Assembly: GCA_023421135.1 (NCBI GenBank)
Contig: JAEZUG010000026.1
Span: 1,155 to 65,154, forward strand
Origin: Candidatus Cloacimonadota bacterium
Lineage (GTDB): Bacteria; Cloacimonadota; Cloacimonadia; Cloacimonadales; Cloacimonadaceae
Direction of reading: 5' to 3'
Length of the DNA stretch: 64,000 nt
In this document: positions 1,419 to 53,053 of the stretch, piece after piece
How positions within the stretch are numbered: position 1 is the first letter of the stretch
Layout of the letters: the number at the start of each line of letters is the position of its first letter
The notes under the pieces: model-generated
What the model saw: the letters and a program-made list of their open reading frames with translations, nothing else
What the model was told of the DNA's origin: nothing
Databases searched by the model: none
Program-made: the position numbers and the translations under genes

Positions 1419-2696
1419 CTAATGGATGGTTGCATCTAAGCTTATTCCCTTTTGTTCGCATGTAACAACATGGCTTCCATTAGTCAAACGATTGATTTCT
1501 TTAAGTGTAACTTGATCAGGATGACCATAGCGATTCCCGTTTGAGCAAGATGTATAGGCATAATCAGGGCTGTAGTAACTTAGGAACTTGGCATTGTAAC
1601 CAGTATTGCTGCAATGATGGGTGACCTTGTAGTACTTTGTACGTTTGTTAGTTAAGTTGCATTTGCTTCCGAGAAACCCATCAATCTGCTCCCAACCTGC
1701 ATCTCCTGGCAGAAGAAGATGTGATTTCTTAGTAACCACATCCATTATTATTCCATGATGATTTTGGTCTGATGAGTTAGCTTTGTTAGCTAGATTACTT
1801 GCAGCAACCAAGCAAAAACCAAAACCACTTTTTGTTCTGGATTCTGTACCTCTGAGCTCGTAGAGAATGTTTCTGTCACTTGCTTCTCTTAGAAGTTTAA
1901 GAGCAGTCGTAGTCTTACCGACTGGCGTATGGCAGAATATAACAGCATTGGGTTGTAAAGTAGTGATGATTTTTTGAGCACTCATGATATGATCATAGTG
2001 CAAATGTGAGATTATGAATCTCTCAATGAAGAATTCAGGATATTTTAGGTAAAGCCAATCATAAAATTCCGATTCACAAATAGCATTCTTATACTGATTT
2101 GAATGCAGATACGCATCAATAAGCCAGATTCTATTTCCTGGGAATCTAAGAACTATTGTGTCCCCTTGTCCTACGTTCATTACGTGGAGATTAATTTGAG
2201 GATGCTGAAGAAACTCAAGGTCAGATATCAGGTCTGATTCTGGAATCACCTTATTTTTAACTTTATCGATAATTTCCTTGTATTCTTTTTCAACAGCTTT
2301 CTCAATTTTTCTATTACGATTGACTGATGCCAATGTGTCATCATTTAGATACCATATGTTCTGCACTTGGCTATTATGTGAATTAACGTATTCTCTTTTT
2401 AGCCCAGGATGATTCCACTCTACCTGAAAAGCTCTTCCACTGCTTAACAATCCATCATCATCAGAAATGAAACTCGCATGACTGACTAGGTTCTTATCTG
2501 CTAATAAATATCGCACAGGTACTCGAACCTGATCATCGACATTAACTAGTTTGATCCAATAACCACTTTCGCTCAGTTTCTTATCCACTCCTGATTTCTC
2601 ACTTACTGGGAATACATCATCTACTATCCAAGTATCTTGCCAGGATTGAACATCAATGTACTCCATTATAGTCTTAATATAATTACTTACTGCCAT
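1419..2696 (-). CDS. MBL-fold metallo-hydrolase (ComEC/Rec2-related type) with an uncharacterised ~170-aa N-terminal domain
   Basis: 425 aa. Motifs: VMNVGQGDTIVL, ISHLHYDH (HxHxDH, nt 1989-2012), LLPGDAG, KVTHHCS, RYGHPD. GAGGA RBS upstream of ATG 2696. AT-rich codon usage unlike the neighbouring genes. Confidence 0.75.
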   Translation of the reverse strand: MAVSNYIKTIMEYIDVQSWQDTWIVDDVFPVSEKSGVDKKLSESGYWIKLVNVDDQVRVPVRYLLADKNLVSHASFISDDDGLLSSGRAFQVEWNHPGLKREYVNSHNSQVQNIWYLNDDTLASVNRNRKIEKAVEKEYKEIIDKVKNKVIPESDLISDLEFLQHPQINLHVMNVGQGDTIVLRFPGNRIWLIDAYLHSNQYKNAICESEFYDWLYLKYPEFFIERFIISHLHYDHIMSAQKIITTLQPNAVIFCHTPVGKTTTALKLLREASDRNILYELRGTESRTKSGFGFCLVAASNLANKANSSDQNHHGIIMDVVTKKSHLLLPGDAGWEQIDGFLGSKCNLTNKRTKYYKVTHHCSNTGYNAKFLSYYSPDYAYTSCSNGNRYGHPDQVTLKEINRLTNGSHVVTCEQKGISLDATIH

Positions 2697-2984: not shown

Positions 2985-3473
2985 AAATCCATTTATTGTA
3001 TTGAACTACATTATCTCAATTGCGTCATTATTTGTCAAGATCAATGCACCCATTTCATTGGGTGATCTTGACTGATCCAGGAAAGATACATCATCTCATC
3101 TTGATTGGTCCCTTGAGACAGGCACAGCGAAGAAAAATCTCTTGCTTCAAAAAATTGATAAAGAGGCAGTTACGTATATGAGGAAAAGATTCCACAGCAA
3201 AGTGTCAACCAACTGACGAAAGTGTCCCCTATATATAAGTAAGGGGTACATTGCAGGAAGTCAGGTTCTGATAATGGCTCAGTGGATCGTTTTTCCAGCG
3301 AGCTGGATTGTCGATAGGGCAACAATGCGTGTATCTTTTAGATTAGCACGGCAATGGTGTAAACCAGGGCTCACACAACATTCTATATCACGGTACTCGC
3401 CACGGAGCGGATTCAGAAGCTGCATTGTAAGTGAAAGAAAATGACGAAGATAAGCTAAGTGTACATAAAAAAC

Positions 3474-3503
3474 TTGACAGTAACTGTAAATTTGTTTTAC
3501 AGT
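3474..3503 (+). promoter_or_regulatory. putative promoter (TTGACA -35, TACAGT -10) overlapped by the inverted repeat ACTGTAAA-N5-TTTACAGT
   Basis: TTGACA at 3474-3479, 18-nt spacer, TACAGT at 3498-3503. Perfect 8-bp arms at 3483-3490 and 3496-3503. AGAGGTGA RBS and ATG 3536 follow. Confidence 0.35.
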
Positions 3504-3535
3504 GCCATGTAAACAGAAGTGCGAAAGAGGTGATT

Positions 3536-6500
3536 ATGCCAGAACGCTTGATGCACAAGATGCATAGTTTTGTTCAGGACAGATTCCCGCTCTCCAAGGT
3601 GATTGGGGTGCTCAGTGACAAGAATAGTAGCCACCTTTTGGAGATCACGGGAAAATCGGGATCGGGGAAGTCTTATTTAATTGCCCCAATGCTGGAGGCT
3701 TTGAAGGATAGCTATAGCAAGATTGAGTACTTCTCGCCCAATCCTCTCCGTTACAATCATTTCAGGGATGTAATCAAGATTCTGACGGATATTGAGGATC
3801 AGAAGCTCGAGGACTTGCTGCTTACTCATCAGAAGGATTACAGCACAGGGAAGAGGTACGATTTTTATTACTATATCACCGAGCAATTGCTGCAGGGCAA
3901 GCACTTTCATCAAATGCTGCTGGTGATCGACGATTGTGATGTGCTGGATCATTATACCAGGGACTTTCTGCAGTATTTGGTGCAATATACTGAGGATCTG
4001 GGAGTGCAGATTGTCGTCTTTTCGCAAAAGCGTCTCTTCAGCTTCTCAATCTTGGAACAAGTGCCTTCTGCCAGCGTGGATGAGATTCAAAAGTTACTCA
4101 CCCAACTCTTTCCCCAAACAGACTTTTCTTATGTAAGCGAGAGTGAGATACTCTGCCGGATCAGCGATGGCAATCTGATGATCATGGAGAGGATTCTCAT
4201 GGAGATGCTGAAAGGGAAAAATAAACCCGTCTTTGATCTCAGTCCCTATTTGGAGCGCTCTTTCAATGCAGTTCAGATCTACCACGAAGCTTTGGAAAAG
4301 CTCAGTAAAAGCCAAACTGAGATACTGATCGGTCTCTTTGCTTTGGATGGTCTGGATGAAGAAGGCTTCAAACAAAGCCTGGGAACCGGCAAGACAGCCG
4401 AGAAAGACCTGAACGCTCTATTGGATCTGGGTTTGGTGAATCTGGTTAACCACAGGTTTGTCATTCAAAAGAAGAATGCCTTTTCTGAATGGCTAAAAAA
4501 CAACCCTGGAGTGCTCTCTTCAGCCCTTTTAGTTAAGATCATCAAGCAACTCAGCAAAGATGATGCTACCGGGCAAGTATTGGCCAGGCTGCATTCTCTG
4601 GTTGGCACTTATCCAGAAGAGCTCTTTTTGGGGCTAATGCACCAGTTGGGACTGATCTGTGATAATGAGAATATGATTGCGCTCTTCGAGTATGCACTCA
4701 AGAATACTAAAGAGCCCGAAGCGATGCTAGAGCTCAACCTGAGAATGGGCAGAGCCTTCTCGGATAACAACGAAAAGGACAAGGCCGTTGATTTCTTCCG
4801 CAAGTGTCTGCATATCTGCAGTGAAAACGATCTCCCGGCCGAAGAAGTGATCTTCCAACTTGCCAGTACCCTTTTTGAGATCAATTCATCTGCCTTTGCT
4901 CTGGAGATCATCAAAAAGTACTCACCTTCCACTATAGATCCCTGGATGAAAGTGAGAATCCGTATGCTGAAAGCTGATATCCTGGTAGAATCTGAGGAGT
5001 ATGAGGAGGCTATCCAAACCATCGAAGCAGTGATGCACTCTCTATCCAGCCTGGAAAACAAACTACACAGGTATCTTGCTCAAGCTGAGGCCAAGAAGAT
5101 CAAAGGTAAGATCCATTACTACGTGAATGAATGGGATCAGGCTGAGATAGCCTTCAAAGATGCAGAAAACATGTATCAACTCGCTGAAGACCAGAAGGGT
5201 CTGGCTGCGATATCAAACAACCTGGGTGTGCTATATATGTTCCAGGGTGATTGGGAGAAGAGCGAATACTGCTTTCTCAGAAGTCTTGCCATCGAAAAAG
5301 AGATTTACAACCTTAATGGCATCTCGGTTTGTTACAACAATCTGGGTGGTTTGATGGACGATAAAGGCGATCAGCTCCGTTCCATCTCTTATCTGGAAGA
5401 AGCACTCAAGATTCAGAAGTTGCTCAATGAGCCCTATAATATCTCAAATATATATAATAACATCGGGATTACCCTGATGGATCAGGGGCAATACGCTCAA
5501 GCCGAGGAAGTGCTGGTTAAATCCCTGGAAACGGCTACGGATTTTAACTTTTTCAGGCATATAGTAGCATCTCTTAATAACCTTGGAGCGCTTCACTTTA
5601 AGAAGGGCAATTGGAATCTCTCAATCAGCTATTACGAGCAGGCCATCAGCAAAAGTCAGGAGAATAGCTTCAATGAAGGCCTGCTGAGATCCTTTAATAA
5701 CCTGGGTGAAGTCTATGAGAAACAAAACGAACTAAACTTGGCTTATGATCTCTATTTCAAGGGGCTGGAGCTCTTGAGCACTGTCTCTGATGATTATATC
5801 AAGGCAGAGCTCTATGGTAATCTGGGCTCTGTGCTTACCAAGCTCCACAAGTTCAAAGAAGCCTATGGCTATCTGGTGGAGAGCTTTGATTTCTTCAAAT
5901 CCCTCAATGCCCGTGATAAGATAATGGAAGGATGCCAGAAGCAGGCTTACTACTTTATACTGACTCATAATCTTGAAAGTGCGGATTACTATCTGAAACA
6001 GGCCATGAAGATGGCTCATGAACAGAATCATCCCTTCGAGATTGGCAGATCTTTCTACCTACGGGCACTACTGGAACGTAAGGATCTGGAATCTGCCAAG
6101 ACAAACCTGGAGGAGTCCATCAAGATGTTTGTGCAGACAGGGAGCAGTTACGAGCTTTCTCTGGCAAACTACGAACTGGCTTCGGTTCTCTTTGAGATGA
6201 AGGAATGGGAACCAGCTCTGCAGATTCTGAAGAATAACCGCAAGATCATCCAGGAGTATGGCTCGATTAAGCTGTTGGAACAGAATGATATACTGTTGCA
6301 GAAGATATCCCGGGAGTATTCTGCTCAGATGCAGGACATCAAGTTTGAAGAAAACCTGCTGAATCAATTCTATGAGATCACGCAGAATCTGAACACTCTC
6401 ACCGATTTAGATGTCCTAATCGAGAATTCTCTTTCCAGCCTGATTGAGCTCTCGGAAGCTGATGGAGGAATGCTCTGCCTGCATGAAAGCAGTACCTTGC

Positions 6501-7822
6501 CGGGTTCCTGGGAGTACAAGCTGTATAAGGGTACTTCTCCGGACGATAAGAATCACAGCATCTTCATGGATCTGTGCCATCAGGTTTACAACAGCAAGAA
6601 GCTGGAAAACTACAAACAACCTCACTTTGCACCTGATTACAACAACATCCTCATCTTGCCTTTATCTATCCGCAAGAACACACTGGGCGTGGTTCTGCTC
6701 TTTAGCACCAGCGGAGCTCATTATTTCTCTGAAAGGATAATCAATCTCCTGAGCGCTCTTACCAATCAGGTGATTGTGATCATAGAAAATATCCGCAGTG
6801 CCAATCTGGAAAAGACCCACGCTGTGATCCGTGAGCAGCTCAATTCCAATAACCTCTATGCCAATATCATCGGCACCAGTCCAGAGATGCAGAAGATCTT
6901 TGAGATCATCGAGAAGGTGAAGGATACGCCCACCTCAGTGCTTTTGGAAGGTCCTAGCGGAACAGGAAAGGAACTCATTGCCAGAGCTCTGCACTTTAGC
7001 AGCAACAGGAGCAATAAGTCTTTTGTCGCCCAGTACTGTGGAGCTTTGCCGGAGACACTGCTGGAAAGCGAACTCTTTGGACATGTGAAGGGTTCGTTCA
7101 CTGGAGCAGCCTATGATAAGAAGGGACTCTTTGAGATAGCCGATGGCGGAACCTTCTTCCTGGATGAGATAGCCGATATCAGCCAAAGCACTCAGGCCAA
7201 GCTTCTGCGCTTCTTACAGGAAGGCGAGATCAAGAGAGTGGGCGCCACCAAGACGGAAAAGGTGAATGTGCGTGTGGTCTGCGCCACGAACGTGTCTCTC
7301 CTGGATAAAGTCAAAGACGGTTCATTCCGGCTGGATCTGTACTACCGACTGAACGTGATCAAGATTGAAGTGCCTCCCCTCAAAACCAGAAAGGGGGACA
7401 TCCCTCTCTTATCAGTTCACTTTCTGGATAAGTATAATAAACGCATCAATAAGTCCGTGGTTGGCATCTCTGATGAAGCCATGAAGATCATGGAAAACTA
7501 TGACTGGCCAGGTAATGTGCGCCAGCTTGAAAATGAAATAGAACGCGCCGTGACTCTGGCGGAGAACAATAGCTTCATCAAGCCCTCAGATTTCTCTGAG
7601 GAAGTGCGGAAGTATATCGAAAACGTGCAGACCATCAAGCTGCTGAATAGCAAGCGATCGCTGAAGGATGCCATTGAAGAATTGGAACGCAAGCTGATAA
7701 CTGAAAGTATGGAACAGAACCAATGGAACCAAACTCAGGCAGCCAAGGAACTGGGTCTCTCCCGGCAAGGCTTGATTAAGAAGCTTAAGAGATATAACCT
7801 ATACAAGGAAGAAGAAGCTTGA
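3536..7822 (+). CDS. giant sigma-54-dependent transcriptional activator: N-terminal P-loop (AAA_16/STAND-like) NTPase + TPR array + GAF + sigma-54 AAA+ domain + Fis-type HTH
   Basis: Walker A GKSGSGKS (3650-3673) and Walker B LLVIDDCD. Repeated xNNLGxxYxxxGxxxxAxxxxxxAL TPR units (about 5040-6250). GAF-like block (about 6370-6800). bEBP core: GPSGTGKE (6950-6973), ESELFGH, GSFTGA (7091-7108), FLDEI, NVRQLEN. C-terminal QAAKELGLSRQGLIKKLKRY. The ORF track starts at GTG 3431, but the RBS and promoter favour ATG 3536. Confidence 0.85.
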   Translation: MPERLMHKMHSFVQDRFPLSKVIGVLSDKNSSHLLEITGKSGSGKSYLIAPMLEALKDSYSKIEYFSPNPLRYNHFRDVIKILTDIEDQKLEDLLLTHQKDYSTGKRYDFYYYITEQLLQGKHFHQMLLVIDDCDVLDHYTRDFLQYLVQYTEDLGVQIVVFSQKRLFSFSILEQVPSASVDEIQKLLTQLFPQTDFSYVSESEILCRISDGNLMIMERILMEMLKGKNKPVFDLSPYLERSFNAVQIYHEALEKLSKSQTEILIGLFALDGLDEEGFKQSLGTGKTAEKDLNALLDLGLVNLVNHRFVIQKKNAFSEWLKNNPGVLSSALLVKIIKQLSKDDATGQVLARLHSLVGTYPEELFLGLMHQLGLICDNENMIALFEYALKNTKEPEAMLELNLRMGRAFSDNNEKDKAVDFFRKCLHICSENDLPAEEVIFQLASTLFEINSSAFALEIIKKYSPSTIDPWMKVRIRMLKADILVESEEYEEAIQTIEAVMHSLSSLENKLHRYLAQAEAKKIKGKIHYYVNEWDQAEIAFKDAENMYQLAEDQKGLAAISNNLGVLYMFQGDWEKSEYCFLRSLAIEKEIYNLNGISVCYNNLGGLMDDKGDQLRSISYLEEALKIQKLLNEPYNISNIYNNIGITLMDQGQYAQAEEVLVKSLETATDFNFFRHIVASLNNLGALHFKKGNWNLSISYYEQAISKSQENSFNEGLLRSFNNLGEVYEKQNELNLAYDLYFKGLELLSTVSDDYIKAELYGNLGSVLTKLHKFKEAYGYLVESFDFFKSLNARDKIMEGCQKQAYYFILTHNLESADYYLKQAMKMAHEQNHPFEIGRSFYLRALLERKDLESAKTNLEESIKMFVQTGSSYELSLANYELASVLFEMKEWEPALQILKNNRKIIQEYGSIKLLEQNDILLQKISREYSAQMQDIKFEENLLNQFYEITQNLNTLTDLDVLIENSLSSLIELSEADGGMLCLHESSTLPGSWEYKLYKGTSPDDKNHSIFMDLCHQVYNSKKLENYKQPHFAPDYNNILILPLSIRKNTLGVVLLFSTSGAHYFSERIINLLSALTNQVIVIIENIRSANLEKTHAVIREQLNSNNLYANIIGTSPEMQKIFEIIEKVKDTPTSVLLEGPSGTGKELIARALHFSSNRSNKSFVAQYCGALPETLLESELFGHVKGSFTGAAYDKKGLFEIADGGTFFLDEIADISQSTQAKLLRFLQEGEIKRVGATKTEKVNVRVVCATNVSLLDKVKDGSFRLDLYYRLNVIKIEVPPLKTRKGDIPLLSVHFLDKYNKRINKSVVGISDEAMKIMENYDWPGNVRQLENEIERAVTLAENNSFIKPSDFSEEVRKYIENVQTIKLLNSKRSLKDAIEELERKLITESMEQNQWNQTQAAKELGLSRQGLIKKLKRYNLYKEEEA

Positions 7823-10689
7823 GCTCTGATACATCTGAACAAAAAGTAGAATCTCTGGATAGCATCCTGAATTTCGTCTCCCTGGATATCGAGACCACGG
7901 GCTTGGATACACGCAGGGATGAGATTATTCAGATAGCTGCGATCCGATTCACTGCGGGAAAGAAAACAGAAGTCTTTGATAGCTTTGTGAAACCCAATGC
8001 TAAGGTGCCCACTTTCATCAAAGCTCTTACTCACATCTCATCGGAAGATCTAAAGAATGCTCCGGATATTAAGGCTGTTCTTCCCAAGCTTCTGGAGTTC
8101 ATTGGTGATTCTGTGATAGTAGGCCAAAATATTGCTTTTGATTTGGGGTTTATTGATGAGAATCTGATACGTATGGGCAAGTTTCCCATTCGTAATCAGA
8201 GATGGGATACGGCCGAGATCGGCAGGGTTTATCTGCCATTCATCAATAATCACAAGCTGGGAACCATGTGTAGAGAGTTTTATATAGTGCTGGATAATGC
8301 TCATCGGGCAGACGCAGATGCTGTTGCCACCGGAGAGCTGCTTTGCCACCTGAGTCATCACATCTACGATCACTATAGTCTGGTGCTCAACGCCAGACTC
8401 TTGGATCTTGCCAAACAGGCCAAGCTGGAAGACAGCCTATATCACTATCTGTATAAACTAGTCGAGTTTCAAAGACATTATGCTTTGATTGGTAAGAAGC
8501 CTGAGCCACCTGAAAACAAGCTGGTTAACGTCATCGATCATCAGATTCCGGGCAATGGAGTAGCGGATATTGAGAACGTCTTTGGTCCTTCCGGAATATT
8601 CTCCCAGCGCTTTGAAAACTATGAATTCAGAAGTGGCCAGCTAGAGATGGCCAAACACATTGCTCTGGCTTTTGAGCAGGAACATCATCTGGCAGTGGAG
8701 GCAGGCACGGGAGTGGGGAAGTCTTTTGCATACTTGGTTCCTGCCATGCAATATGGACTGGATAAACGTACCAAAGTTTTGATCTCTACCAACACCAAGA
8801 ACCTCCAGGAACAGCTCTTCTTCAAGGATATACCAGCTCTTCGCAAGATCATCCCCATCCCCTTTAAAGCATGTTTGGTAAAGGGGAGGGACAATTATAT
8901 CTGTGAACGGCGTTGGAATGAGTTGCTGAGCGACCAGAGCAAAGGCTATACAGATTATGAAGCACATGCTTTACTCTATCTGGTGGTTTGGAAGCAGCTC
9001 ACTCACACAGGAGATATCTCGGAGAATTCGTCCTTCGATCGCAGCCGGTTCAGCTTTGTGTGGAGAAAAGTATGCTCAGATCGCTACCTCTGTGGAGGAA
9101 GAAGATGTCCGCTCAATAAGAGCTGCTATCTGATGAAGCTCCGTAAGGATATTGAGGACGCCAGTATAGTGGTGGCCAATCACTCTTTGCTTCTGGCTGA
9201 TATGCAGACCGATAACCAGAGCTTGGGAGAATATAGCTATCTGGTAGTAGATGAGGCTCATAACCTAATGGCTTCTGCTGCTCGTCTTTTGGGCTTTGAA
9301 CTCGGCTATGTGGATTTGAATTCTCTGCTTCAGCAATTGGGTAGCTCTCATCGCAGGCAACACACAGGCTTTTTGAGCCAATTAAACAGGGCAGTTGAAA
9401 AGAGTCTCTGCCCGGATGCTGTGAAGACACAGATGAGCTCACTGGTCAAGAATGTGGAGAAGAATATTGAGTTTCTTCGCAAACCTCTGCAGGACATGTT
9501 CAATGAGGCTGGTCGGATAGTTCTCCAGGCAGATAGCTTTGGAAAGTGCAGGATAAAGACTCAAGGACAGTATCCTGCTTTAGACGAGAAATTGCTTAGT
9601 GTAAGGAACACCTGGAAATCCCTGGTGAAAGATCTCACGGCTATAAGCAATGTGCTCAGCACTATCAAAACGGGTGTTCTGGCTCAATATGAGAACTATG
9701 TGGAAAGCCTGTCTTCCTTTGGTGCTCGCATGTCTGAAATCGAACAATCCATGATGATACTCCTGGATCCAGATCTGGATAACTATGCTCTGTGGTTGGA
9801 AAACAATGGGGGAGACCGGAATACACCCTCAGCGGTTATCTGTTACGCACCAGTTGAGGTGGGAGAGCATCTCAACCGGATTCTTTACAAAAATGTCCGA
9901 AGCATTGTCTTTACATCAGCCACTCTCGCTTTAAGAGGTTCTTTCAAGTTTTTCAAGGGACAGAGTGGCCTTAATCTGGTGGAGGATGGTAAGCTGGTTG
10001 AGGAGATAGTGGATTCTCCTTTTGACTACGATAAACAGTCACGTCTCATGATCAGCAGCTTCTTACCAGAACCCAAAGACCGTTTCTTTGGGAATCAAGC
10101 CCTGGCCTGTCTGGAGCAGATAGTAACATCGGTCAATATCGGTACCATGGTACTTTTTACTTCCTATAAGGACCTGAACCAGGTTTTCGAGCACCTTTCA
10201 GATGTGTTGTATCAGAACAACCGCAGTTTCTTCGCCCAGGGTAAAGGCTCCAGCCGTTCATCTATTCTGAGTGAGTTTAAACAGGTGGATAATGCAGTAC
10301 TCCTGGGCACCAGTTCATTTTGGGAAGGGGTGGACATTCAAGGTAAGTCACTATCACTTCTTATTCTGTACAAGCTGCCCTTCATGGTGCCATCCGAACC
10401 AGTCGTGGAAGCTTATATCGATAAATTGGAACGAGAGCAGAAAGACTCCTTCATGTACTATATGTTGCCCAATGCACTCCTGAGATTACGCCAGGGCTTT
10501 GGCAGACTGATCAGAAGTAAGAGTGATACTGGTATAGTGTTAATAATGGATTCCAGAGTCTCTACCAAGAAGTATGGTAGTTATTTTAAAGAAGTATTAC
10601 CTTGTCAAAGTCGTGAGTTCCAATCTGAACAACAGCTCTTTAGTGAAATCGCTGCCTTTTTCAGAAACCAAGAAACGGAAGACAAATGA
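7819..10689 (+). CDS. dinG: bifunctional DnaQ-like 3'-5' exonuclease / DinG-family ATP-dependent DNA helicase
   Basis: Exonuclease motifs SLDIETTGLD and HRADADA. Helicase motifs AGTGVGKS (8701-8724), VVDEAHNL and a C-terminal GRLIRS. Cys cluster C-x~70-VCSDRYLCGGRRCPLNKSC suggests an XPD-type Fe-S domain. TTG start overlaps the upstream TGA stop. Confidence 0.85.
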   Translation: MSSDTSEQKVESLDSILNFVSLDIETTGLDTRRDEIIQIAAIRFTAGKKTEVFDSFVKPNAKVPTFIKALTHISSEDLKNAPDIKAVLPKLLEFIGDSVIVGQNIAFDLGFIDENLIRMGKFPIRNQRWDTAEIGRVYLPFINNHKLGTMCREFYIVLDNAHRADADAVATGELLCHLSHHIYDHYSLVLNARLLDLAKQAKLEDSLYHYLYKLVEFQRHYALIGKKPEPPENKLVNVIDHQIPGNGVADIENVFGPSGIFSQRFENYEFRSGQLEMAKHIALAFEQEHHLAVEAGTGVGKSFAYLVPAMQYGLDKRTKVLISTNTKNLQEQLFFKDIPALRKIIPIPFKACLVKGRDNYICERRWNELLSDQSKGYTDYEAHALLYLVVWKQLTHTGDISENSSFDRSRFSFVWRKVCSDRYLCGGRRCPLNKSCYLMKLRKDIEDASIVVANHSLLLADMQTDNQSLGEYSYLVVDEAHNLMASAARLLGFELGYVDLNSLLQQLGSSHRRQHTGFLSQLNRAVEKSLCPDAVKTQMSSLVKNVEKNIEFLRKPLQDMFNEAGRIVLQADSFGKCRIKTQGQYPALDEKLLSVRNTWKSLVKDLTAISNVLSTIKTGVLAQYENYVESLSSFGARMSEIEQSMMILLDPDLDNYALWLENNGGDRNTPSAVICYAPVEVGEHLNRILYKNVRSIVFTSATLALRGSFKFFKGQSGLNLVEDGKLVEEIVDSPFDYDKQSRLMISSFLPEPKDRFFGNQALACLEQIVTSVNIGTMVLFTSYKDLNQVFEHLSDVLYQNNRSFFAQGKGSSRSSILSEFKQVDNAVLLGTSSFWEGVDIQGKSLSLLILYKLPFMVPSEPVVEAYIDKLEREQKDSFMYYMLPNALLRLRQGFGRLIRSKSDTGIVLIMDSRVSTKKYGSYFKEVLPCQSREFQSEQQLFSEIAAFFRNQETEDK

Positions 10690-11615
10690 GAGAAACTATT
10701 ACTCAGCGTTTTGGAGCCCTACATGAAGACGGGAGACTGCGGTTTGATGAACCACTTTCCCGTCACTGCAGCTTCAAAATCGGTGGCCCTGCCGACGTTA
10801 TAGCAATACCACAGACAGAAAAAGAATTCATCGAGCTGCTCAGCTTTGCTCTGGAACACCAAGTTCCCTACTTCATCCTGGGCAATGGCTCAAATCTGCT
10901 GATCAGCGACAAAGGCTACCGTGGCCTGATTATCAAGAGCTCTGGAATGAACAAGATATCAAGAGACGAGCTCTTTATCTCTGCTTATGCGGGTACAGTG
11001 CTCTCGCAAGCCTGCAGCTTTGCCAGAGATCTGGGTCTGGCAGGTCTTGAGTGGGCCAGCGGGATACCCGGAACTGTGGGCGGAGCAGTTTTCATGAATG
11101 CCGGAGCCTATGGAGGAGAGATCAAAGACTGCCTCTATTTCAGCAGATGTATTCGCCCTGACTTAGAGTCTTTGAGGGCTAAGAACCCAATCATCTACCT
11201 CAAGAATGAAGAGCATCACTTTGCTTACCGTAAAAGCTCTCTACAATCCAGTGGACTAATAGTCCTCAGCTCCGCTTTCAAGCTTGAGAAGGATTCTACG
11301 GAGGCAATATCTGCCAGAATGGAAGAGCTGAAACAGCAGAGAAACTCTAAACAACCCATGGATCTACCATCAGCTGGCAGCGTGTTTAAGCGTCCGGAAG
11401 GTCATTTCACCGGTAAATTGATTGATGACTGCGGGCTTAGAGGTTATCGGATAGGAGATGCGGCAGTATCGGATAAGCACTGCGGTTTCATTGTGAATAT
11501 GGGGAAAGCTAGCTTTAATGATGTTTTTGCCTTGATCCAACACGTCAAAAGTACGGTAAAAGAAAGATTCGGAGTGGAACTAGAGACTGAGATCAGACTT
11601 CTGGGTGAGCTTTGA
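10686..11615 (+). CDS. murB: UDP-N-acetylenolpyruvoylglucosamine reductase
   Basis: FKIGGPAD, GNGSNLL, PGTVGGAVFMNAGAYG, AGSVFKRP. ATGA overlap with dinG. Confidence 0.9.
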   Translation: MRETITQRFGALHEDGRLRFDEPLSRHCSFKIGGPADVIAIPQTEKEFIELLSFALEHQVPYFILGNGSNLLISDKGYRGLIIKSSGMNKISRDELFISAYAGTVLSQACSFARDLGLAGLEWASGIPGTVGGAVFMNAGAYGGEIKDCLYFSRCIRPDLESLRAKNPIIYLKNEEHHFAYRKSSLQSSGLIVLSSAFKLEKDSTEAISARMEELKQQRNSKQPMDLPSAGSVFKRPEGHFTGKLIDDCGLRGYRIGDAAVSDKHCGFIVNMGKASFNDVFALIQHVKSTVKERFGVELETEIRLLGEL

Positions 11616-12400
11616 GACAATCTGGAAAATACATATATCCTTCAATCCTATTTGTTCTGTTGATTCTTGCTTGGCACGCTCTCAGTCTGAGCCGCAGCCT
11701 GGACTCCTGGATATTGCCATCTCCTCTTAAGGTGCTCTCTGCTTTCACTGAAGCCGGCGATCTACTATGGTATCATTTCAAGTTTACTCTGCAAGCCACA
11801 CTCTATGGTTTTGCCATCAGCATAGTTCTTGGCTTGATCACAGCCATGATAATGGATAACATCAGAGCTTTTCATCAGGCTCTGTATCCCTATATCATTG
11901 CTTCTCAAACCATCCCGATCATAGCTATTGCACCTCTGCTTATCATCTGGTTTGGCTATGGGCTGGCATCCAAAGTCTTCACAGTGGTGCTCATTTGCTT
12001 TTTCCCCATAGCATTAAATTTCTGGATTGGTCTGAGCAGCGTGAGCATAGATCAGATTCGTCTGATTCGCTCAATGGGAGCAGGACGTTGGAAGACTTTC
12101 CTCTATCTTAAACTGCCTGCCTCACTACCAAGCCTGTTTACCGGGCTCAAGCTTTCTGCTACCTACAGTGTAATGGGTGCGATTATTGGTGAGTGGTTAG
12201 GCGGAGTCGGCGGCTTGGGAATCTATATGACCAGAGCCAGCAAATCATATTTGACTCATCATGTCTATGCCATAGTGATTGTGATAGTAATGCTCAGCCT
12301 GGCTCTCTTCTTAGTCGTATCACTATTTGAGCGCTTACTCCTAAAGTGGAACGCTCCTAAACAAGAAGAGTATAAAGATTTCAAGGAATTAAGGAATTAA
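11612..12400 (+). CDS. ABC transporter permease (SsuC/TauC/ThiX-like binding-protein-dependent type)
   Basis: Six predicted TM segments. EAA-like loop IRLIRSMGAGRWKTFLYLKLPASLP. Start overlaps the murB stop. Confidence 0.75.
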   Translation: MRQSGKYIYPSILFVLLILAWHALSLSRSLDSWILPSPLKVLSAFTEAGDLLWYHFKFTLQATLYGFAISIVLGLITAMIMDNIRAFHQALYPYIIASQTIPIIAIAPLLIIWFGYGLASKVFTVVLICFFPIALNFWIGLSSVSIDQIRLIRSMGAGRWKTFLYLKLPASLPSLFTGLKLSATYSVMGAIIGEWLGGVGGLGIYMTRASKSYLTHHVYAIVIVIVMLSLALFLVVSLFERLLLKWNAPKQEEYKDFKELRN

Positions 12401-12475: not shown

Positions 12476-13303
12476 ATGCTAGCTATCACTGGTATCGGAC
12501 AAGCAATTACAGAATTCTTCACACCAGATAGAATCTCTATGCTGGTTCGAGTTGCCCTTATCTTAGGCATAGGGCTGCCATTGCTATCTTTGATTAAGAA
12601 GATTACGGTCAAGCTAACTCATGGCAAGCTTTCTCCCCAATCCGAGCAGTTGATCCAGAGAGCTGTTTATTATCTCGGTTTCCTGGTTTTGGTGGTTACT
12701 CTGTTGAATGAGTTTGGCTTCAAGCTTTCGGCTCTTCTGGGAGCTGCTGGTGTGCTTGGTATTGCAATAGGCTTTGCTTCTCAGACCAGTGTATCCAATA
12801 TCATAAGCGGTATCTTCCTGATTAGTGAGAAACCCTTTGTTATCGGAGACGTGATTGACATCGGGGGAACGATCGGAACAGTGGCCTCAATCGATCTCCT
12901 CTCCATAAAGCTTAAGACCCCAGACAACCGTTTTGTACGTGTTCCCAATGAGAACATGATCAAGACTGAAGTCATCAATATCACACGATTCGAAACACGA
13001 AGGGTAAACATCAATGTCTCAGTAGCATATGAATCAGATATGAGTAAGGTTCTGCAAATTCTTGACAACATCGCCAATACTGAAGAACTTGCCCTCAAAG
13101 AACCCAAATACATTTCGGTCGTTGATGCCTTCTCCGATTCAGGCATCAATGTCCTCTTTGGAGTTTGGGGAAATACCAGCGACTATTGGACCTTACGGAA
13201 CAATCTGATGCTTAGGGTTAAACAGGAGTTTGAAAATAACGGGATATCGATTCCATATCCCCACGTGCAGATTGTTGCACAGAACAACAAAGAACAAGTA
13301 TAG
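12476..13303 (+). CDS. mechanosensitive ion channel (MscS family)
   Basis: Three N-terminal TM helices, then SNIISGIFLISEKPFVIGDVI..G..GTV..I.L....K..DN....VPN, typical of the MscS beta-domain. Confidence 0.85.
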   Translation: MLAITGIGQAITEFFTPDRISMLVRVALILGIGLPLLSLIKKITVKLTHGKLSPQSEQLIQRAVYYLGFLVLVVTLLNEFGFKLSALLGAAGVLGIAIGFASQTSVSNIISGIFLISEKPFVIGDVIDIGGTIGTVASIDLLSIKLKTPDNRFVRVPNENMIKTEVINITRFETRRVNINVSVAYESDMSKVLQILDNIANTEELALKEPKYISVVDAFSDSGINVLFGVWGNTSDYWTLRNNLMLRVKQEFENNGISIPYPHVQIVAQNNKEQV

Positions 13304-13317
13304 AAGAGGTAAGAATT

Positions 13318-14016
13318 ATGACAAAACCCAAGATCAAAGGCATCATCTTTGATATGGATGGGACACTTTTAGACACACTCAAGGATATTGCTGACGCAAT
13401 GAACGAAGCCTTGGTAGAATTCGGTTTCCCCGCTCATCCTGAAGAAGACTACAAGGGTTTTGTAGGTAGTGGGCTTTCCGAACTTTGCAAAAGAGTTCTT
13501 CCTGAGAAGAACCAAAGCCAAACGCAGATCAACAAGCTGACTCAGAAGTTTTGGGAAAACTATGAGAACAATTGGTTCATGCACACCAAACCGTATTCCG
13601 GAATCATGTATCTGGTTCAGTTGGGGATAGCCCGCAAGCTCAAGCTTGCCATCCTATCAAACAAACCTCATTACTTTACAAAGAAAATGATCAGGCATTT
13701 CTTCAGGGGTGCCATGATCAAGCATTTCAAAAACCCCTTTGGAATTTACAGTGGAGAACAGACAGATAAGCCCGCTAAGCCAGATCCAACGATCGCTCTT
13801 GAGCTTGCTGAGCGCTTGAATGTGCTGCCAGCAAATATAGCTTTTGTGGGTGATAGTGATGTGGACATGCAGACGGCAAAGAATGCAGGCATGATCGCAG
13901 TTGGCGCCGCCTGGGGATTCAGAAGCAAGAAAGAACTCCAGGATGCCGGAGCCGATTACGTCTTCGACACAGCCCTTGATTTGGTGAAGTTCATAGAATC
14001 CGAGCCTGCTATCTGA
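13318..14016 (+). CDS. HAD-family hydrolase (phosphoglycolate phosphatase-like)
   Basis: HAD motif [13 protein letters not shown], motif II ILSNK, motif [19 protein letters not shown]. Confidence 0.8.
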
Positions 14017-14432
14017 TGAAATCATTCAGGAAGGTTCTCACGATCAGAACAGACACCCGACGAGCCTATCTGAACCTCACACCCCAGGTGGAGACTGCCA
14101 TCCGGGAAAGCGGGATCAGAGAAGGAATGTGCTTGGTAAATGCCATGCATATCACGGCCTCAGTGTTTATTAACGATCATGAGAGCGGTTTGCATGCCGA
14201 CTTTGAGAAGTGGCTGGAGAAGCTTGCCCCGGAGAAACCTCATAACCAATATCAACACAATGGCTATGAAGAAAATGCCGATGCCCACCTGAAACGTCAG
14301 ATCATGGGCAGAGAAGTGGTTTGTGCCATTACAGAAGGCAAATTGGACTTCGGTCCATGGGAGCAGATATTCTACGGCGAATTCGATGGTATGCGTGACA
14401 AACGAGTCCTGATCAAACTGATCGGAGAATAA
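14016..14432 (+). CDS. YjbQ/UPF0047 family protein (secondary thiamine-phosphate synthase type)
   Basis: 138 aa. [23 protein letters not shown]...NADAHLK...[18 protein letters not shown]. Start overlaps the stop of the HAD gene. Confidence 0.85.
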
Positions 14433-14454
14433 CCCAGCTATTAATAGCAGATAA

Positions 14455-14485
14455 ACGGGCAGTGAATACACTGCCCGTTTTTTTT
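14455..14485 (+). terminator. rho-independent terminator after yjbQ-like gene
   Basis: 10-bp stem ACGGGCAGTG/CACTGCCCGT, 4-nt loop, then an 8-T run. Confidence 0.85.
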
Positions 14486-16244: not shown

Positions 16245-16592
16245 GGGGGTGACATGGTTTCGACAGGAAACTTTGAGTGTAAGAGATGCATGCCGGAGAC
16301 GCTATCCACTCCGTTATCAAGTGGCACAAAAATTAATTGCAAACAACAACTACTCCTTAGCAGCATAAGCCGCTAACGTCTCACCTTCCCGTTCCGTCGG
16401 GGAAGAATGAGGCGTCGTAACAGTACGGACGCTCCGGGGTTGGTGCCTGAATATCCCGGCTAAGCTAATAGGCTGGGTTGCATAGTGGTCTGATTGCCTT
16501 CCACATGTGATCAAGATTAAAGACAACTAAGCATGTAGATTCTTTTATGGGCAGTTTTTTGGACGCGGGTTCGATACCCGCCACCTCCACCA
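16245..16592 (+). ncRNA. ssrA: tmRNA (transfer-messenger RNA)
   Basis: The 5' GGGGGUG pairs with the 3' CACCUCC-ACCA, including the G3:U alanine identity pair. T-arm GGGTTCGATACCCGC. Tag ORF GCA AAC AAC AAC TAC TCC TTA GCA GCA TAA (16339-16368) encodes ANNNYSLAA. Confidence 0.93.
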
Positions 16593-16714: not shown

Positions 16715-17086
16715 ATGATGCATACTGATTTGCAAGTCTATAAAGAAAGCATGCTGCTGGTGAAAGATATCTATGACCTGACCAGGAGCTTTCCCAAGGA
16801 TGAACAGTGGGCACTTACATCCCAAATGAAGCGAGCCGTTATATCGATTCCATCAAATCTTGCGGAAGGATCTGGAAGAAGATCAAGCAAAGAACTTTCT
16901 CATTTCTTGAACATTTCTTTGGGCTCTCTATCCGAGCTTGAAACACAGATAGAGATAGCAAACATATTGGGCTTTATAGAAGATAAGAGCATGACAGAGC
17001 CTATTATAGCAAGGTTGAACAGCGTCAAACGCATGCTGGTCGCGCTACAGAAAAGAGTAACTACTCCACCTCTCAGCTCGAAATGA
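16715..17086 (+). CDS. four-helix-bundle protein (23S rRNA intervening-sequence protein family)
   Basis: 123 aa. ...QMKRAVISIPSNLAEGSGRRSSKELSHFLNISLGSLSELETQ... is the family signature (R-A--SI--NIAEG...F-------GS--E). GGAGGG RBS. Confidence 0.8.
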   Translation: MMHTDLQVYKESMLLVKDIYDLTRSFPKDEQWALTSQMKRAVISIPSNLAEGSGRRSSKELSHFLNISLGSLSELETQIEIANILGFIEDKSMTEPIIARLNSVKRMLVALQKRVTTPPLSSK

Positions 17087-21456: not shown

Positions 21457-22755
21457 ATGGAATTAATCAAGAAGATCAAAGACAAGTCCCTCACTGTTGG
21501 CGTGATAGGATTGGGTTATGTAGGATTGCCTATGGCAGTCACCATTGCCAAGAAGGGTTTCAAGGTTATCGGTTTTGAAGTCTCTGATTATGCGATAGAG
21601 CATGTGAATGCCGGAGAGAATTATATCGGCGACGTTACCGACGAGGATCTGAAGAAAGTCGTGAGTAATGGGTTACTTTGCGCCACCAAAGATTATAGCC
21701 GTATCTCAGAAGTACAGGCTATCATGATCGCAGTGCCAACTCCTCTGGATCGTTATCATCAACCAGATGTCACTTTCATCAAGCTGGCAACTCAGGCAAT
21801 GGCACCTCATATCGTTCCCGGAACCCTTGTTGTGCTGGAAAGTACCACATATCCAGGAACCACCCGTGAGATCATCCTTCCTGAGTTTGAGAAACAGGGC
21901 TTGATAGTTGGTGAGACTGTGTTCTTAGCCTTTTCTCCTGAAAGGGTTGATCCGGGTAATGAAACCTATAAGACTCACAATACTCCCAAGGTTGTGGGGG
22001 GTATTACTCCAAAGTGTAATGAGGTATCCAAAGCTTTATACGAGAGTATTCTTGATGCTCCCGTCCACTGTGTATCATCACCTGAAGTGGCGGAGATGGA
22101 GAAGATTTATGAGAATACCTTCCGTAATATCAATATAGCTCTTGCCAATGAGATGACAGTTCTCTGCGAGAGAATGGGCATCAGCATTTGGGAAGTGATA
22201 GACGCTGCCAAGACCAAGCCTTACGGTTTCATGGCCTTCTATCCCGGGCCTGGAGTAGGTGGTCACTGTATCCCCATCGATCCCTTCTACCTTACATGGA
22301 AAGCCAGGGAGTTTGAGTTCCATACCCGTCTGATCGAACTGGCTGGAGAAATCAATATAGACATGCCTGAATATGTGGTTCAGAGAGCCATCAAAGTTCT
22401 TAACCGCAAAGGTATTGCCATCTCCAGAGCAAAGATCTTGCTGCTGGGTGCCGCCTACAAGAAAGATATCCGTGATATGCGTGAATCCCCAGTGGAACAG
22501 GTGATCGAGCAGCTTGAGGCTCATGATGCTGATTTTGAGATTCATGATCCCTACGTGGAAGAATTTCACAATGAAAGAAACGGTAAGACCTATGACACTA
22601 TTGCTCTGGGTAACCTGATCAAATACGATCTGATTATTGTGATTACAGACCACTCCTGCGTAGATTATAAAGCTATTGCCGAGAGCGGTGTGAGTGTTCT
22701 TGACACCCGAAATGCCTTCAAGGGTATCAAGGCAGAAAACGTTGAGATTCTCTAA
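21457..22755 (+). CDS. nucleotide-sugar dehydrogenase (UDP-ManNAc/UDP-GlcNAc dehydrogenase-like, WecC/TviB type)
   Basis: N-terminal GLGYVGLP Rossmann motif. Catalytic GPGVGGHCIPIDP. Same family as the downstream Ugd but a different subfamily. Confidence 0.85.
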   Translation: MELIKKIKDKSLTVGVIGLGYVGLPMAVTIAKKGFKVIGFEVSDYAIEHVNAGENYIGDVTDEDLKKVVSNGLLCATKDYSRISEVQAIMIAVPTPLDRYHQPDVTFIKLATQAMAPHIVPGTLVVLESTTYPGTTREIILPEFEKQGLIVGETVFLAFSPERVDPGNETYKTHNTPKVVGGITPKCNEVSKALYESILDAPVHCVSSPEVAEMEKIYENTFRNINIALANEMTVLCERMGISIWEVIDAAKTKPYGFMAFYPGPGVGGHCIPIDPFYLTWKAREFEFHTRLIELAGEINIDMPEYVVQRAIKVLNRKGIAISRAKILLLGAAYKKDIRDMRESPVEQVIEQLEAHDADFEIHDPYVEEFHNERNGKTYDTIALGNLIKYDLIIVITDHSCVDYKAIAESGVSVLDTRNAFKGIKAENVEIL

Positions 22756-22771
22756 GAGACAAGATATACAT

Positions 22772-22805
22772 GCAAAGCCCGTATTCTATGCGGGCTTTGC
22801 TTTCT
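22772..22805 (+). terminator. rho-independent terminator between the dehydrogenase and the UpxY-like gene
   Basis: Perfect 10-bp stem GCAAAGCCCG/CGGGCTTTGC, 9-nt loop, then TTTCT. Confidence 0.75.
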
Positions 22806-22811
22806 AGTGAA

Positions 22812-23384
22812 ATGGCGACTCATAAACCCGTCACAATTGATGAACTCTTTGGCAAGCTGGAGCAAAACCAGACTGAGCTCTGGTATGTGATTCATACCAA
22901 GCCCCGCCAGGAAAAGAAGCTGGCAGGATTCTGCCATACGGAAGGTATGTGGTATTACCTGCCCCAGATGCCCAGAGAACATCTCTATAACCATCGAAAA
23001 GTCATGTTCGATGTACCTATGTTTCCTGGATATATCTTTACCAGTCTGGATGAGGAAAAACGTGAGAGAATAAAGTATTCAGGGGCTATCGTAAACATCA
23101 TCAAAGTTAAGAATCAGAAGGCTCTGCTATCTGAATTGAATAGTATTCTCTTAAGCAAACAGAAGCATCTGGATTTTGAAGCAGCAGTCTGGTTGGATAA
23201 AGGTCTTGAAGTAATGGTAATCAAAGGCCCACTCAAAGGAATCAGGGGCGTTGTGGAGAGTCACACCAAGCTGGAAGAAGTCCAGCTTCAAATTGATATC
23301 CTCAGGCAAGCAGTACGCGTGAAAGTAAAAGCGGATCAGCTTAGAATACTGGGAGATTACAAGATAGTGGAGAGCGAAGCATGA
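22812..23384 (+). CDS. UpxY-family NusG-like transcription antiterminator
   Basis: NGN domain WYVIHTKPRQEKKLAGF. KOW-like VMVIKGPLKGIRGVVE. Start moved to ATG 22812 because the track's ATG 22770 lies inside the terminator hairpin. Confidence 0.7.
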   Translation: MATHKPVTIDELFGKLEQNQTELWYVIHTKPRQEKKLAGFCHTEGMWYYLPQMPREHLYNHRKVMFDVPMFPGYIFTSLDEEKRERIKYSGAIVNIIKVKNQKALLSELNSILLSKQKHLDFEAAVWLDKGLEVMVIKGPLKGIRGVVESHTKLEEVQLQIDILRQAVRVKVKADQLRILGDYKIVESEA

Positions 23385-24310
23385 AGATAGTAGTAACAGG
23401 TGGAGCAGGGTTTATCGGTTCAAACGTAGTTGATGCCTTCCTGGGTGCCGGTCATGAAGTAGTAGTAATTGATAACTTGAGTACTGGTTACAGGCATAAC
23501 ATCAATCCATCAGCAAAGTTCTATGAGATGGATATTTGTTCCTCGGAACTGACCTCAGTTCTGCAAAAAGAGGAAGCAGACATCATTTGTCACCATGCTG
23601 CTCAAGCCAGTGTTCCAGTTTCGGTAAAAGACCCCTTATACGATGCTAACACAAATGTTATGGGCTTCATCAACCTTTTGCAGGGTGCTGTGATAAACAG
23701 AGTGAAGAAAGTAATCTTTATCTCCAGTGGTGGTGCTTTGTATGGAGAAGCAGAAGAGTATCCCACTACAGAAAACTATCAGCCTGTACCTCTATCTGTA
23801 TATGCTATAAACAAAATGGTTGGCGAGATCTATCTACATTTTTACAAACACCAATATGGCTTGGACTACACAGTTCTACGCTATGCCAATGTCTATGGCC
23901 CCAGACAGGTTTCGCACGGTGAAGCAGGGGTTGTCTCCATCTTCATCGAAAAGCTTCTCGGAGGTGAAACACCAACCATCAATCGTTACGAGGATCAGCC
24001 TAATGGAATGATTCGAGACTATGTCTTTGTTCAGGATGTGGTCAAAGCCAATCTGGCAGCGCTGGAAAGGGGAAGCGGAGAAGCCTTCAATATAGGCACA
24101 TGCATTCCCACATCTACTCTCACATTGTACAATGAGATTTGTCTCCAACTTGGTATCGTTACCGAGCCATACTTTGCACTGGCCAGGTTGGGAGACCTGA
24201 AAAACAGTTTATTGAACTATGACAAGGCTGCCAGTGTTCTGGGCTGGAAACCAGATTACAGCTTAGCTTCTGGCATAGCTGAAACGATCAAGTATTTTAA
24301 GAATAAGTAG
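23381..24310 (+). CDS. NAD-dependent epimerase/dehydratase (extended SDR, GalE-like)
   Basis: VTGGAGFIGSN, SSGGALYG, catalytic YAINK. Start overlaps the upstream stop. Confidence 0.85.
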   Translation: MKIVVTGGAGFIGSNVVDAFLGAGHEVVVIDNLSTGYRHNINPSAKFYEMDICSSELTSVLQKEEADIICHHAAQASVPVSVKDPLYDANTNVMGFINLLQGAVINRVKKVIFISSGGALYGEAEEYPTTENYQPVPLSVYAINKMVGEIYLHFYKHQYGLDYTVLRYANVYGPRQVSHGEAGVVSIFIEKLLGGETPTINRYEDQPNGMIRDYVFVQDVVKANLAALERGSGEAFNIGTCIPTSTLTLYNEICLQLGIVTEPYFALARLGDLKNSLLNYDKAASVLGWKPDYSLASGIAETIKYFKNK

Positions 24311-24319
24311 AGGTTTACA

Positions 24320-52940: not shown

Positions 52941-53053
52941 CTGTTTAATGAGAGAGCTATCAGTGTGCCTCTAGTGGCTCCAATGATAGGCTGGATCTGG
53001 CATAGATAGTGTATTCTACCTGCTTCCCGATCTTAAGGCAGGGCCTCTTAGAA

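Follow-up and report, generated by a model that had tools for sequence, protein, structure and literature searches.

A 64,000-nucleotide stretch of a Candidatus Cloacimonadota genome (assembly GCA_023421135.1, contig JAEZUG010000026.1, positions 1,155 to 65,154 of the forward strand), referred to here as the window, carries a gene whose product appears to be a composite transcriptional regulator, in which a STAND-type nucleotide-binding oligomerization domain (NOD) with a TPR sensor would gate a complete sigma-54-dependent bacterial enhancer-binding protein (bEBP). The reading that we favor, and hold to be reasonably probable, is that of a STAND-gated sigma-54 activator with orthologues throughout the Cloacimonadota and with control over its own expression. 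Coordinates given below are positions in the window, and residue numbers are those of the encoded protein. An uninterrupted open reading frame (ORF) runs from 3431 to 7822 on the plus strand, and the probable start codon is the ATG at 3536, six bases after AAGAGGTG (3525-3532), giving a product of 1,428 aa. The gene and its parts are as follows.

3536..7822, plus strand: the whole gene, STAND-TPR-GAF-AAA+-HTH regulator (ORF, Pfam, NCBIfam, orthologue conservation)
3536..4135, plus strand: predicted STAND nucleotide-binding domain (NBD), residues 1-200 (Pfam, invariant Walker A residues, AlphaFold2)
3650-3673, plus strand: Walker A motif of the STAND NBD, GKSGSGKS
3917-3934, plus strand: Walker B motif of the STAND NBD, LLVIDD
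4136..4555, plus strand: predicted helical domain (HD) and winged-helix domain (WHD) of the NOD, residues 201-340 (AlphaFold2, Foldseek)
4556..6259, plus strand: predicted arm and TPR sensor, residues 341-908 (Pfam TPR matches, AlphaFold2, Foldseek)
6266..6367, plus strand: predicted long linker helix from the TPR array to the GAF domain, residues 911-944 (AlphaFold2)
6386..6805, plus strand: GAF domain, residues ~951-1090 (Pfam GAF_2, NifA model, GAF-AAA+-HTH relatives)
6866..7612, plus strand: sigma-54 AAA+ core and lid, residues 1111-1359 (Pfam, sequence matches in the PDB, conservation)
6950-6973, plus strand: Walker A motif of the AAA+ domain, GPSGTGKE
7091-7108, plus strand: GSFTGA loop
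7673..7795, plus strand: Fis-type HTH_8 DNA-binding domain, residues 1380-1420 (Pfam)

A first-pass annotation made from the DNA alone had proposed a single ORF with two distinct NTPase modules, and this is borne out by Pfam matches to AAA_16 and Sigma54_activat within the one frame, the length of the product being exactly 1,428 aa. Pfam and NCBIfam together give the domain order AAA_16-TPR-GAF-Sigma54_activat-HTH_8. AAA_16 matches residues 33-154 (E 2e-13, 51 bits against a cutoff of 32.6), AAA_22 and NPHP3_N likewise match the N-terminal region, and matches to TPR_12, TPR_1 and TPR_MalT are spread over residues ~400-900. The GAF-like block, complete bEBP core and Fis-type helix-turn-helix that had been described further downstream all find profile matches: GAF_2 at residues 956-1084 (E 1e-5), slightly below its cutoff at 26.3 versus 28.6 bits; Sigma54_activat (PF00158) at 1111-1278, covering 168/168 profile positions (E 3e-68, 229 bits against a cutoff of 20.2), with AAA_lid_14 beside it; and HTH_8 at 1380-1420 (E 1e-13). 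The NifA model TIGR01817, the best match in NCBIfam, aligns to residues 942-1421 with 360 bits against an equivalog cutoff of 528.85, and no NCBIfam equivalog cutoff was reached. The Pfam scan gave no match to GerE, the LuxR-type domain, and the C terminus consists of Sigma54_activat and HTH_8. Every motif named earlier is present in the translation, namely GKSGSGKS (residues 39-46), LLVIDD (128-133), GPSGTGKE (1139-1146), ESELFGH and GSFTGA (1186-1191).

For the C-terminal half, the best sequence matches in the PDB are to NifA (8e-80), followed by ZraR, NtrC1, FleQ and PspF. A comparison of 29 orthologues shows no variation in GPSGTGKE, ESELFGH, GSFTGA, the Walker B motif (...FFLDEI...) or the conserved Arg residues. 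No part of the protein is more conserved than the AAA+ domain, and the sigma-54-contact loop reads GSFTGA in 66 and GAFTGA in 3 of the 69 loci in which it is readable. This half is closest to proteins of ~500 aa with a GAF-AAA+-HTH arrangement from Calditrichota, KSB1, Gemmatimonadota and other groups, which share 38-43% identity with residues 940-1428 in alignments over 97-100% of the half. Judged by these matches, residues 950-1428 make up an enhancer-binding protein with the full GAF-AAA+-HTH_8 set of domains. Contact with sigma-54 is the sole role known for a GAFTGA-type loop, and the invariance of the loop across phylum-level divergence implies that the host lineage has a working sigma-54 system.

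The N terminus had been taken for a STAND-like NTPase, and structure prediction agrees. The AlphaFold2 (AF2) model of residues 1-395 is confident (pLDDT 88.9, pTM 0.87) and has a beta-alpha-beta core together with a helical and a winged-helix domain, with helices followed by a beta-hairpin (301-310) in the HD/WHD region. Its top Foldseek match in the PDB is MalT (8bob_C, E 3.5e-9, TM 0.57 over 419 columns), and CED-4, plant NLR resistosomes, ORC/Cdc6, RuvB, RFC and Avs3 follow lower in the list. In the model of residues 1-945 (pLDDT 88.6, pTM 0.78), residues 394-908 fold into 13 helical hairpins and residues 911-944 into a helix of 34 residues; its top match is PH0952, a TPR-sensor STAND with a crystal structure (6mfv_A, E 4e-14, 704 columns), followed by the TPR domains of LGN/Pins. 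The TPR array of the first-pass annotation is therefore present, but the ~600 aa assigned to it is too long, the 13 hairpins covering ~515 aa (394-908). On these models, residues 1-945 form a STAND module made up of NBD, HD, WHD, arm and 13-hairpin TPR. Within the array, an invariant NNLG motif recurs in six repeats of 40 aa, near residues 561, 602, 642, 681, 721 and 761, as an "Asn ladder". In LGN/Pins, the corresponding Asn residues line a groove for extended peptides, and from this match the TPR array of the regulator probably binds an extended segment of a peptide or protein.

The gene is a constant feature of the phylum. A homologue search with the first 940 residues returned ~90 clusters of 1,415-1,438 aa with the same Pfam set; all clusters bearing a source name come from Candidatus Cloacimonadota, and the lowest identity is 37%. 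With each GTDB species represented by a single genome, a further scan gave 86 matches, of which 80 loci, almost all labelled Cloacimonadota, were kept, and complete copies among these species-level loci measure 1,414-1,440 aa. Nearly all Cloacimonadota species sampled carry the gene, apparently as a single copy at a fixed locus, and public annotations call its product "sigma 54-interacting transcriptional regulator" or [quoted passage not shown]. From this conservation the protein is probably a central regulator in the Cloacimonadota, a phylum without cultivated members that figures prominently in anaerobic digesters.

Outside the family, the two halves part company. A profile of the NOD, searched with HMMER against 1.84 billion representative proteins at E <= 1e-3, gave 76 hits, in which ~30 family members or fragments are followed by a gap to E ~1e-8. 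All 31 distant NOD relatives tested match AAA_16 (31/31), 21 match TPR_12 and 17 TPR_MalT, and among the outputs they carry are Guanylate_cyc (17), Pkinase (3) and GerE (2). None of the NOD-profile hits outside the family has a GAFTGA motif or sigma-54 module, a negative that covers the relatives detectable with this profile, and other NOD subfamilies elsewhere may have independent fusions. For the TPR-B/GAF segment, no relatives outside the family were found, and full-text literature searches found no description of a STAND-bEBP fusion. The architecture, suspected at first pass to be unusual, thus appears to be so. Because the outside relatives of the NOD are without a sigma-54 module and the C-terminal half is nearest to ordinary ~500-aa GAF-bEBPs, the protein would seem to be a fusion particular to this lineage, of a divergent AAA_16-TPR STAND protein with a complete GAF-bEBP. 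Each half clearly belongs to a known superfamily, and it is the combination that was found neither among the relatives detected with the NOD profile nor in the literature searched.

The region upstream of the gene contains a promoter and a candidate binding site, which overlap.

3474..3503, plus strand: sigma-70-type promoter, TTGACA (3474-3479), 18-nt spacer, TACAGT (3498-3503), 10/12 in a consensus scan
3485..3501, no strand assigned: palindrome TGTAAATTTGTTTTACA, 17 bp, consensus TGTMAA-N5-TTTACA, overlapping the promoter spacer and the -10 hexamer

An alignment of the 220 nt 5' of the start codon from 24 species has one conserved block, which in the window is CTTGACAGTAACTGTAAATTTGTTTTACAGTGCCATGTAAAC and holds both promoter and palindrome. 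With up to two mismatches (<=2), 64/68 species loci have the palindrome in the 160 nt that precede the start codon, and only 18 further hits occur elsewhere in 1.14 Mb; the 64-kb window has one perfect match, at the regulator's own promoter. We consider it most likely that the HTH_8 domain recognizes this palindrome as an operator or enhancer-type site. NtrC sites have a 6-5-6 geometry of 17 bp, and the upstream activating sequence of NifA is TGT-N10-ACA; the palindrome shares the 6-5-6 geometry with NtrC sites and reads TGT-N11-ACA where NifA sites have TGT-N10-ACA. PspF and NtrC combine negative autoregulation at a sigma-70 promoter with activation of sigma-54 promoters, and they are matched here in that the candidate site overlaps the regulator's own sigma-70-type promoter in the closer clade. 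Given the palindrome in its own promoter (64/68 species) and these precedents, the regulator probably autoregulates the operon it heads, comprising an exonuclease-DinG gene, murB and downstream genes. In the closer clade, the palindrome lies at -51 to -59 from the start codon and overlaps the -10 hexamer, and in the divergent clade it lies mostly at -85 to -94, ~15 nt upstream of TTGACA, so the sign of regulation may differ between the clades. Through scans of complete genomes, the conserved palindrome also offers a computational route to the regulon.

How the halves might work together can be modeled on the established behavior of the STAND (PMC6468293) and bEBP families, on which the proposed gating of the activator by the STAND module rests. 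At rest, the nucleotide-bound NOD would be held in a clamp of arm and TPR array, as in PH0952/MalT, leaving a monomer or dimer unable to form an active AAA+ ring. A ligand would bind in the conserved Asn-ladder groove of the TPR array and open the NOD for NOD-NOD oligomerization, which would bring the C-terminal halves to a higher local concentration and lift GAF-mediated repression, the signal being relayed along helix 911-944 and by way of the GAF domain. The sigma-54 AAA+ domains would then form a hexamer and remodel the closed complex of sigma-54 RNA polymerase through their GSFTGA loops. More tentatively, we put forward a stronger version, possible but doubtful as it stands, in which the regulator represents an undescribed class of bEBP: a STAND switch with a peptide-binding TPR sensor would drive an AAA+ hexamer, placing two oligomerizing ATPases in series, and the protein, phylum-universal, autoregulated and hard-wired in one operon with exonuclease-DinG, would serve as master activator of the sigma-54 regulon and perhaps as its sole one.

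Known inputs of bEBPs are small sensory domains (for example REC, GAF, PAS, V4R and PRD), and known outputs of STAND proteins are LuxR-type HTHs, cyclases, kinases and caspase-recruitment or nuclease effectors. If the gated activator is real, the STAND-TPR module would be a new input class for bEBPs and the sigma-54 activator a new output class for STANDs. It would also raise a structural question, namely how an NOD oligomer, the stoichiometry of which is variable among STANDs, is matched to a hexameric AAA+ ring.

Two sets of observations weigh against the gated activator, the first of which concerns the NOD and the second sigma-54 and its promoters. The Walker B motif of the NOD (residues 128-133) is readable in 73 species-level loci; it is hhhhDD in the window protein and its clade (44/73 loci), hhhh[YF]E in 21/73, DN in 6/73, EN in 1/73 and YR in 1/73. 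The acidic pair is replaced in 29/73 loci (~40%), with Walker A intact. The HD motif reads GNLMI, compared with GNPxxIEE or GNP(L/F)F in AAA_16 relatives, the proline of GxP being replaced by Leu, and the sensor-1 Arg is not conserved. In STAND proteins, the conserved GxP of the HD packs against the P-loop and the adenine. NOD and arm are the fastest-evolving parts of the protein, with a mean pairwise identity of 33-40% as against 68% for TPR-B, 67% for the linker helix and 80% for the AAA+ domain. The AF2 alignments consisted of family members only (13-19 sequences). The C-terminal portion can also stand alone: P0209, a protein of 788 aa present in two independent assemblies (L081:3286-5652 and L082:2872-5238), aligns to residues 671-1422 with 47% identity; it has neither NOD nor arm, its TPR array is missing the first half, and the TPR-B-GAF-AAA+-HTH part is retained. 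A similar palindrome and TTGACA precede its gene, and it has the same HTH; its gene context differs, with CoA-transferase genes rather than dinG downstream. By alignment and context, P0209 is a genuine NOD-less paralogue, the sole genuine short form among the entries checked.

From the Walker B loss and the GNL form of the HD motif, a classical ATP-hydrolyzing switch is not assured, and some members of the phylum may have an NOD that binds nucleotide without hydrolysis or does not switch at all. Carried to its conclusion, this becomes the most serious alternative, which we regard as unlikely but give real weight: the NOD would be a degenerate, non-switching scaffold, its P-loop domain holding nucleotide constitutively or never and serving a structural or dimerization role, and the protein would be an ordinary GAF-type bEBP with its ligand at the GAF domain or a partner at the TPR array. 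The low conservation of NOD and arm and the survival of TPR-B, GAF, AAA+, HTH and upstream palindrome in P0209 are as this account would have them. It fits less well with Walker A, where GxxGxGK[ST] is kept in 75/75 loci with a readable N-terminal region, G39, G44 and K45 are invariant, and K45 is held across phylum-level divergence. From the constancy of Walker A and the variability of Walker B, nucleotide binding by the NOD seems to be universally required and hydrolysis may be dispensable. The NOD fold is moreover predicted with confidence, and the full length of 1,415-1,440 aa has been kept in ~80 species. STAND switching requires nucleotide binding and exchange rather than fast hydrolysis (PMC6468293). 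The species that have lost Walker B provide a natural series on how much of a STAND switch is needed and on whether hydrolysis by the NOD is.

The second set of observations concerns the sigma-54 system. The first-pass annotation had asked for rpoN in the host, and part of this can be answered: RpoN of Ca. Cloacimonas acidaminovorans, CLOAM1757, with AID, CBD and DBD domains, is listed in a published S9 table (PMC12316311), evidence that covers one species, and this species also carries an orthologue of the regulator (P0063). The gene is thus present in the phylum, but a regular-expression search of six-frame translations found no RpoN box in the window or the 80 fetched loci (~1.1 Mb). Nor did the proposed scan for -24/-12 promoters reveal a regulon, the window and orthologous loci being at chance level and no target gene being assigned. 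Sites resembling -24/-12 elements are not enriched in the window (41 versus 35 expected) or in 1.2 Mb of orthologous loci (19 versus ~25 expected), and the window has no convincing intergenic site in the correct orientation. Of individual candidates, a match at 16322 was rejected as it lies inside the tmRNA gene, and AGGCACACTGATAGCT at 52970, 5' of a rho-mutS operon, was rejected as a weak match in a housekeeping context; the CoA-transferase genes downstream of P0209 were also considered as a target, and no -24/-12 site was found for them. For the gated activator, we infer that sigma-54 target promoters lie elsewhere in the genome.

Another account has the protein act mainly without sigma-54, as a classical repressor or activator that controls exonuclease-DinG, murB and the genes after them through the palindrome in its own sigma-70-type promoter, its AAA+ domain serving only for oligomerization or ATP sensing as in TyrR. 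The sole candidate binding site does sit in a sigma-70-type promoter, no -24/-12 sites were found nearby, and the regulator and DinG genes are linked in 65/68 species. We nevertheless consider this account improbable. Relatives of bEBPs that have left sigma-54 have degenerate GAFTGA loops, unlike the regulator, in which the loop is GSFTGA or GAFTGA in 69/69 readable loci and the AAA+ core is nearly invariant. PspF and NtrC show that autoregulation at a sigma-70 promoter and activation at sigma-54 promoters can reside in one protein, and RpoN is present in Ca. Cloacimonas acidaminovorans (PMC12316311).

Downstream of the regulator lies a series of closely packed genes on the same strand, as follows.

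7819..10689, plus strand: exonuclease-DinG gene, 956 aa, RNase_T-type 3'-5' exonuclease and DinG-family helicase (Pfam RNase_T, DEAD, Helicase_C_2)
10686-11615, plus strand: murB, with an ATGA overlap with exonuclease-DinG (Pfam)
11612-12400, plus strand: ABC permease, with a TTGA overlap with murB (Pfam)
12476-13303, plus strand: MscS channel (Pfam)
13318-14016, plus strand: HAD hydrolase (Pfam)
14016-14432, plus strand: UPF0047 (Pfam)
14453-14480, plus strand: strong intrinsic terminator, 12-bp stem followed by a T-run, ending the putative operon (terminator scan)

The translational-coupling overlap to dinG that had been noted earlier is real: a TTGA joins the regulator to the exonuclease-DinG gene, in which no ATG stands ahead of the DIETTG exonuclease motif, and ATGA and TTGA overlaps continue the series into murB and the permease. 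Exonuclease-DinG lies directly downstream on the same strand in 65/68 species loci with enough sequence. In the closer clade, murB and the permease are syntenic downstream and the upstream genes are variable, and the left border of the regulator may there be a recombination or insertion hotspot. The order in the divergent clade (L048-L080) is alaS, a methyltransferase or PD-(D/E)XK gene, a GT9 glycosyltransferase, the regulator and dinG. The low-GC cassette described at first pass as divergent from the regulator is also confirmed (32-41% GC versus ~45%).

The presence of this cassette bears on a further account, in which the protein is an antiviral or conflict STAND of the Avs type, its TPR array sensing a phage protein and the DinG-type exonuclease-helicase acting as effector. 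The STAND fold does match Avs3 as well, DinG matches type-IV CRISPR DinG models, and an ORF resembling the LmuA/Avs1a effectors is found in the adjacent cassette. Defense genes are, however, usually patchy in their distribution, whereas the regulator is at a fixed locus with stable length in ~80 species, among housekeeping neighbors (alaS, GT9, murB, MscS); its sensor is highly conserved and not diversifying, and the upstream cassette differs between species. PADLOC gives only generic RtcR/PspF AAA+ and TPR models and weak mad8 models. On the PADLOC result and the core-locus synteny, we rejected the defense-system account, the chance of which we consider very small.

The cassette and the rest of the window yielded some observations of their own. 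A 267-nt direct repeat, 89% identical (5-271 and 2718-2984), brackets the low-GC cassette (272-2717), and each of its copies codes on the minus strand for a C-terminal Peptidase_S24 domain. The S24 ORF is found at the same position with 79-93% amino acid identity in species whose regulator is only ~65% identical, which together with the repeat copies suggests that the S24 module was recently exchanged or duplicated. A 424-aa ORF in the cassette (1419-2696, minus strand) has no Pfam match; its C-terminal 100 residues match LmuA, the Lamassu effector (E 3e-13), and Avs1a in PADLOC, and the cassette may be a small defense-type cassette beside the regulator. Further downstream are a tmRNA gene (16245-16592, plus strand) with the tag peptide ANNNYSLAA and, after it, an ORF whose product is a bAvd-like 23S rRNA intervening-sequence protein (16715-17086, plus strand). 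At 21457-25645 (plus strand), two UDP-glucose/GDP-mannose dehydrogenase genes and an epimerase gene have between them a gene for a NusG-domain paralogue (22770-23384), a context resembling that of the RfaH/LoaP-type antiterminators of polysaccharide operons. The remaining window is of a housekeeping nature (PNPase, AdoHcyase, UDP-sugar enzymes, UvrA, UvrC, MurJ, MutS, Rho, LpxL), and no gene near the regulator has the look of a sigma-54 target.

That a STAND-TPR gene and a GAF-bEBP gene were joined by sequencing error, for which two-ORF splits in some database entries (P0201, P0204) might be cited, is refuted by the intact single ORF in independent assemblies (NCBI, JGI, ENA and Logan) and has a negligible chance of being correct. 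An assembly fusion had been named as what would overturn the first-pass annotation, and what was found is a constant length in ~90 clusters and ~80 species-level genomes. The shorter-looking database entries are contig-end fragments or frameshift-split copies. P0201 and P0204 were considered as natural NOD-less forms and rejected, since in their contigs the neighboring genes are broken up as well or the gene directly adjoins an AAA_16 ORF, which marks them as the same full-length gene split by frameshift errors. In L083 (JGI 3300045909, contig Ga0496406_001699), alaS, the regulator and dinG are each split over several ORFs, a sign of assembly indel errors, which explains the "short" regulator entries.

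The composite STAND-gated activator that we favor can be set beside three groups of known proteins. Among GAF-type bEBPs such as NifA, NorR and FhlA, it shares the intact GAFTGA-type loop, the Walker motifs and HTH_8, and differs in having 940 extra N-terminal residues; no nif, nor or hyc genes lie near the regulator in the window, where its neighbors are dinG, murB, the ABC permease and MscS. By sequence, the nearest relatives of its NOD are the AAA_16-TPR cyclase, kinase and LuxR proteins, a signaling class that we take to include mycobacterial PknK and the LAL regulators. None of the relatives found with the NOD profile has the sigma-54 module of the regulator, and the effector, usually N-terminal to the NOD in that class, here is C-terminal, after the sensor.

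By structure, the best matches are MalT of E. coli and PH0952 of Pyrococcus horikoshii, which have the NBD-HD-WHD-arm-TPR order in common with the regulator and carry TPR/SUPR sensors, TPR_MalT matches being found in the regulator as well. The likeness in sequence is remote (outside profile hits begin at E 1e-8), the HD motif reads GNL and not GxP, and Walker B is degenerate in ~40% of loci. Members of the MalT/LAL family carry a C-terminal LuxR/GerE HTH that works at sigma-70 promoters, which the regulator is without. MalT and PH0952 are expected to act after inducer- and nucleotide-dependent multimerization (PMC6468293). Where the output of these two proteins is a simple LuxR or ArsR HTH that operates with the housekeeping polymerase, that of the Cloacimonadota regulator is a GAF-AAA+-HTH unit, and hence a second ATPase.

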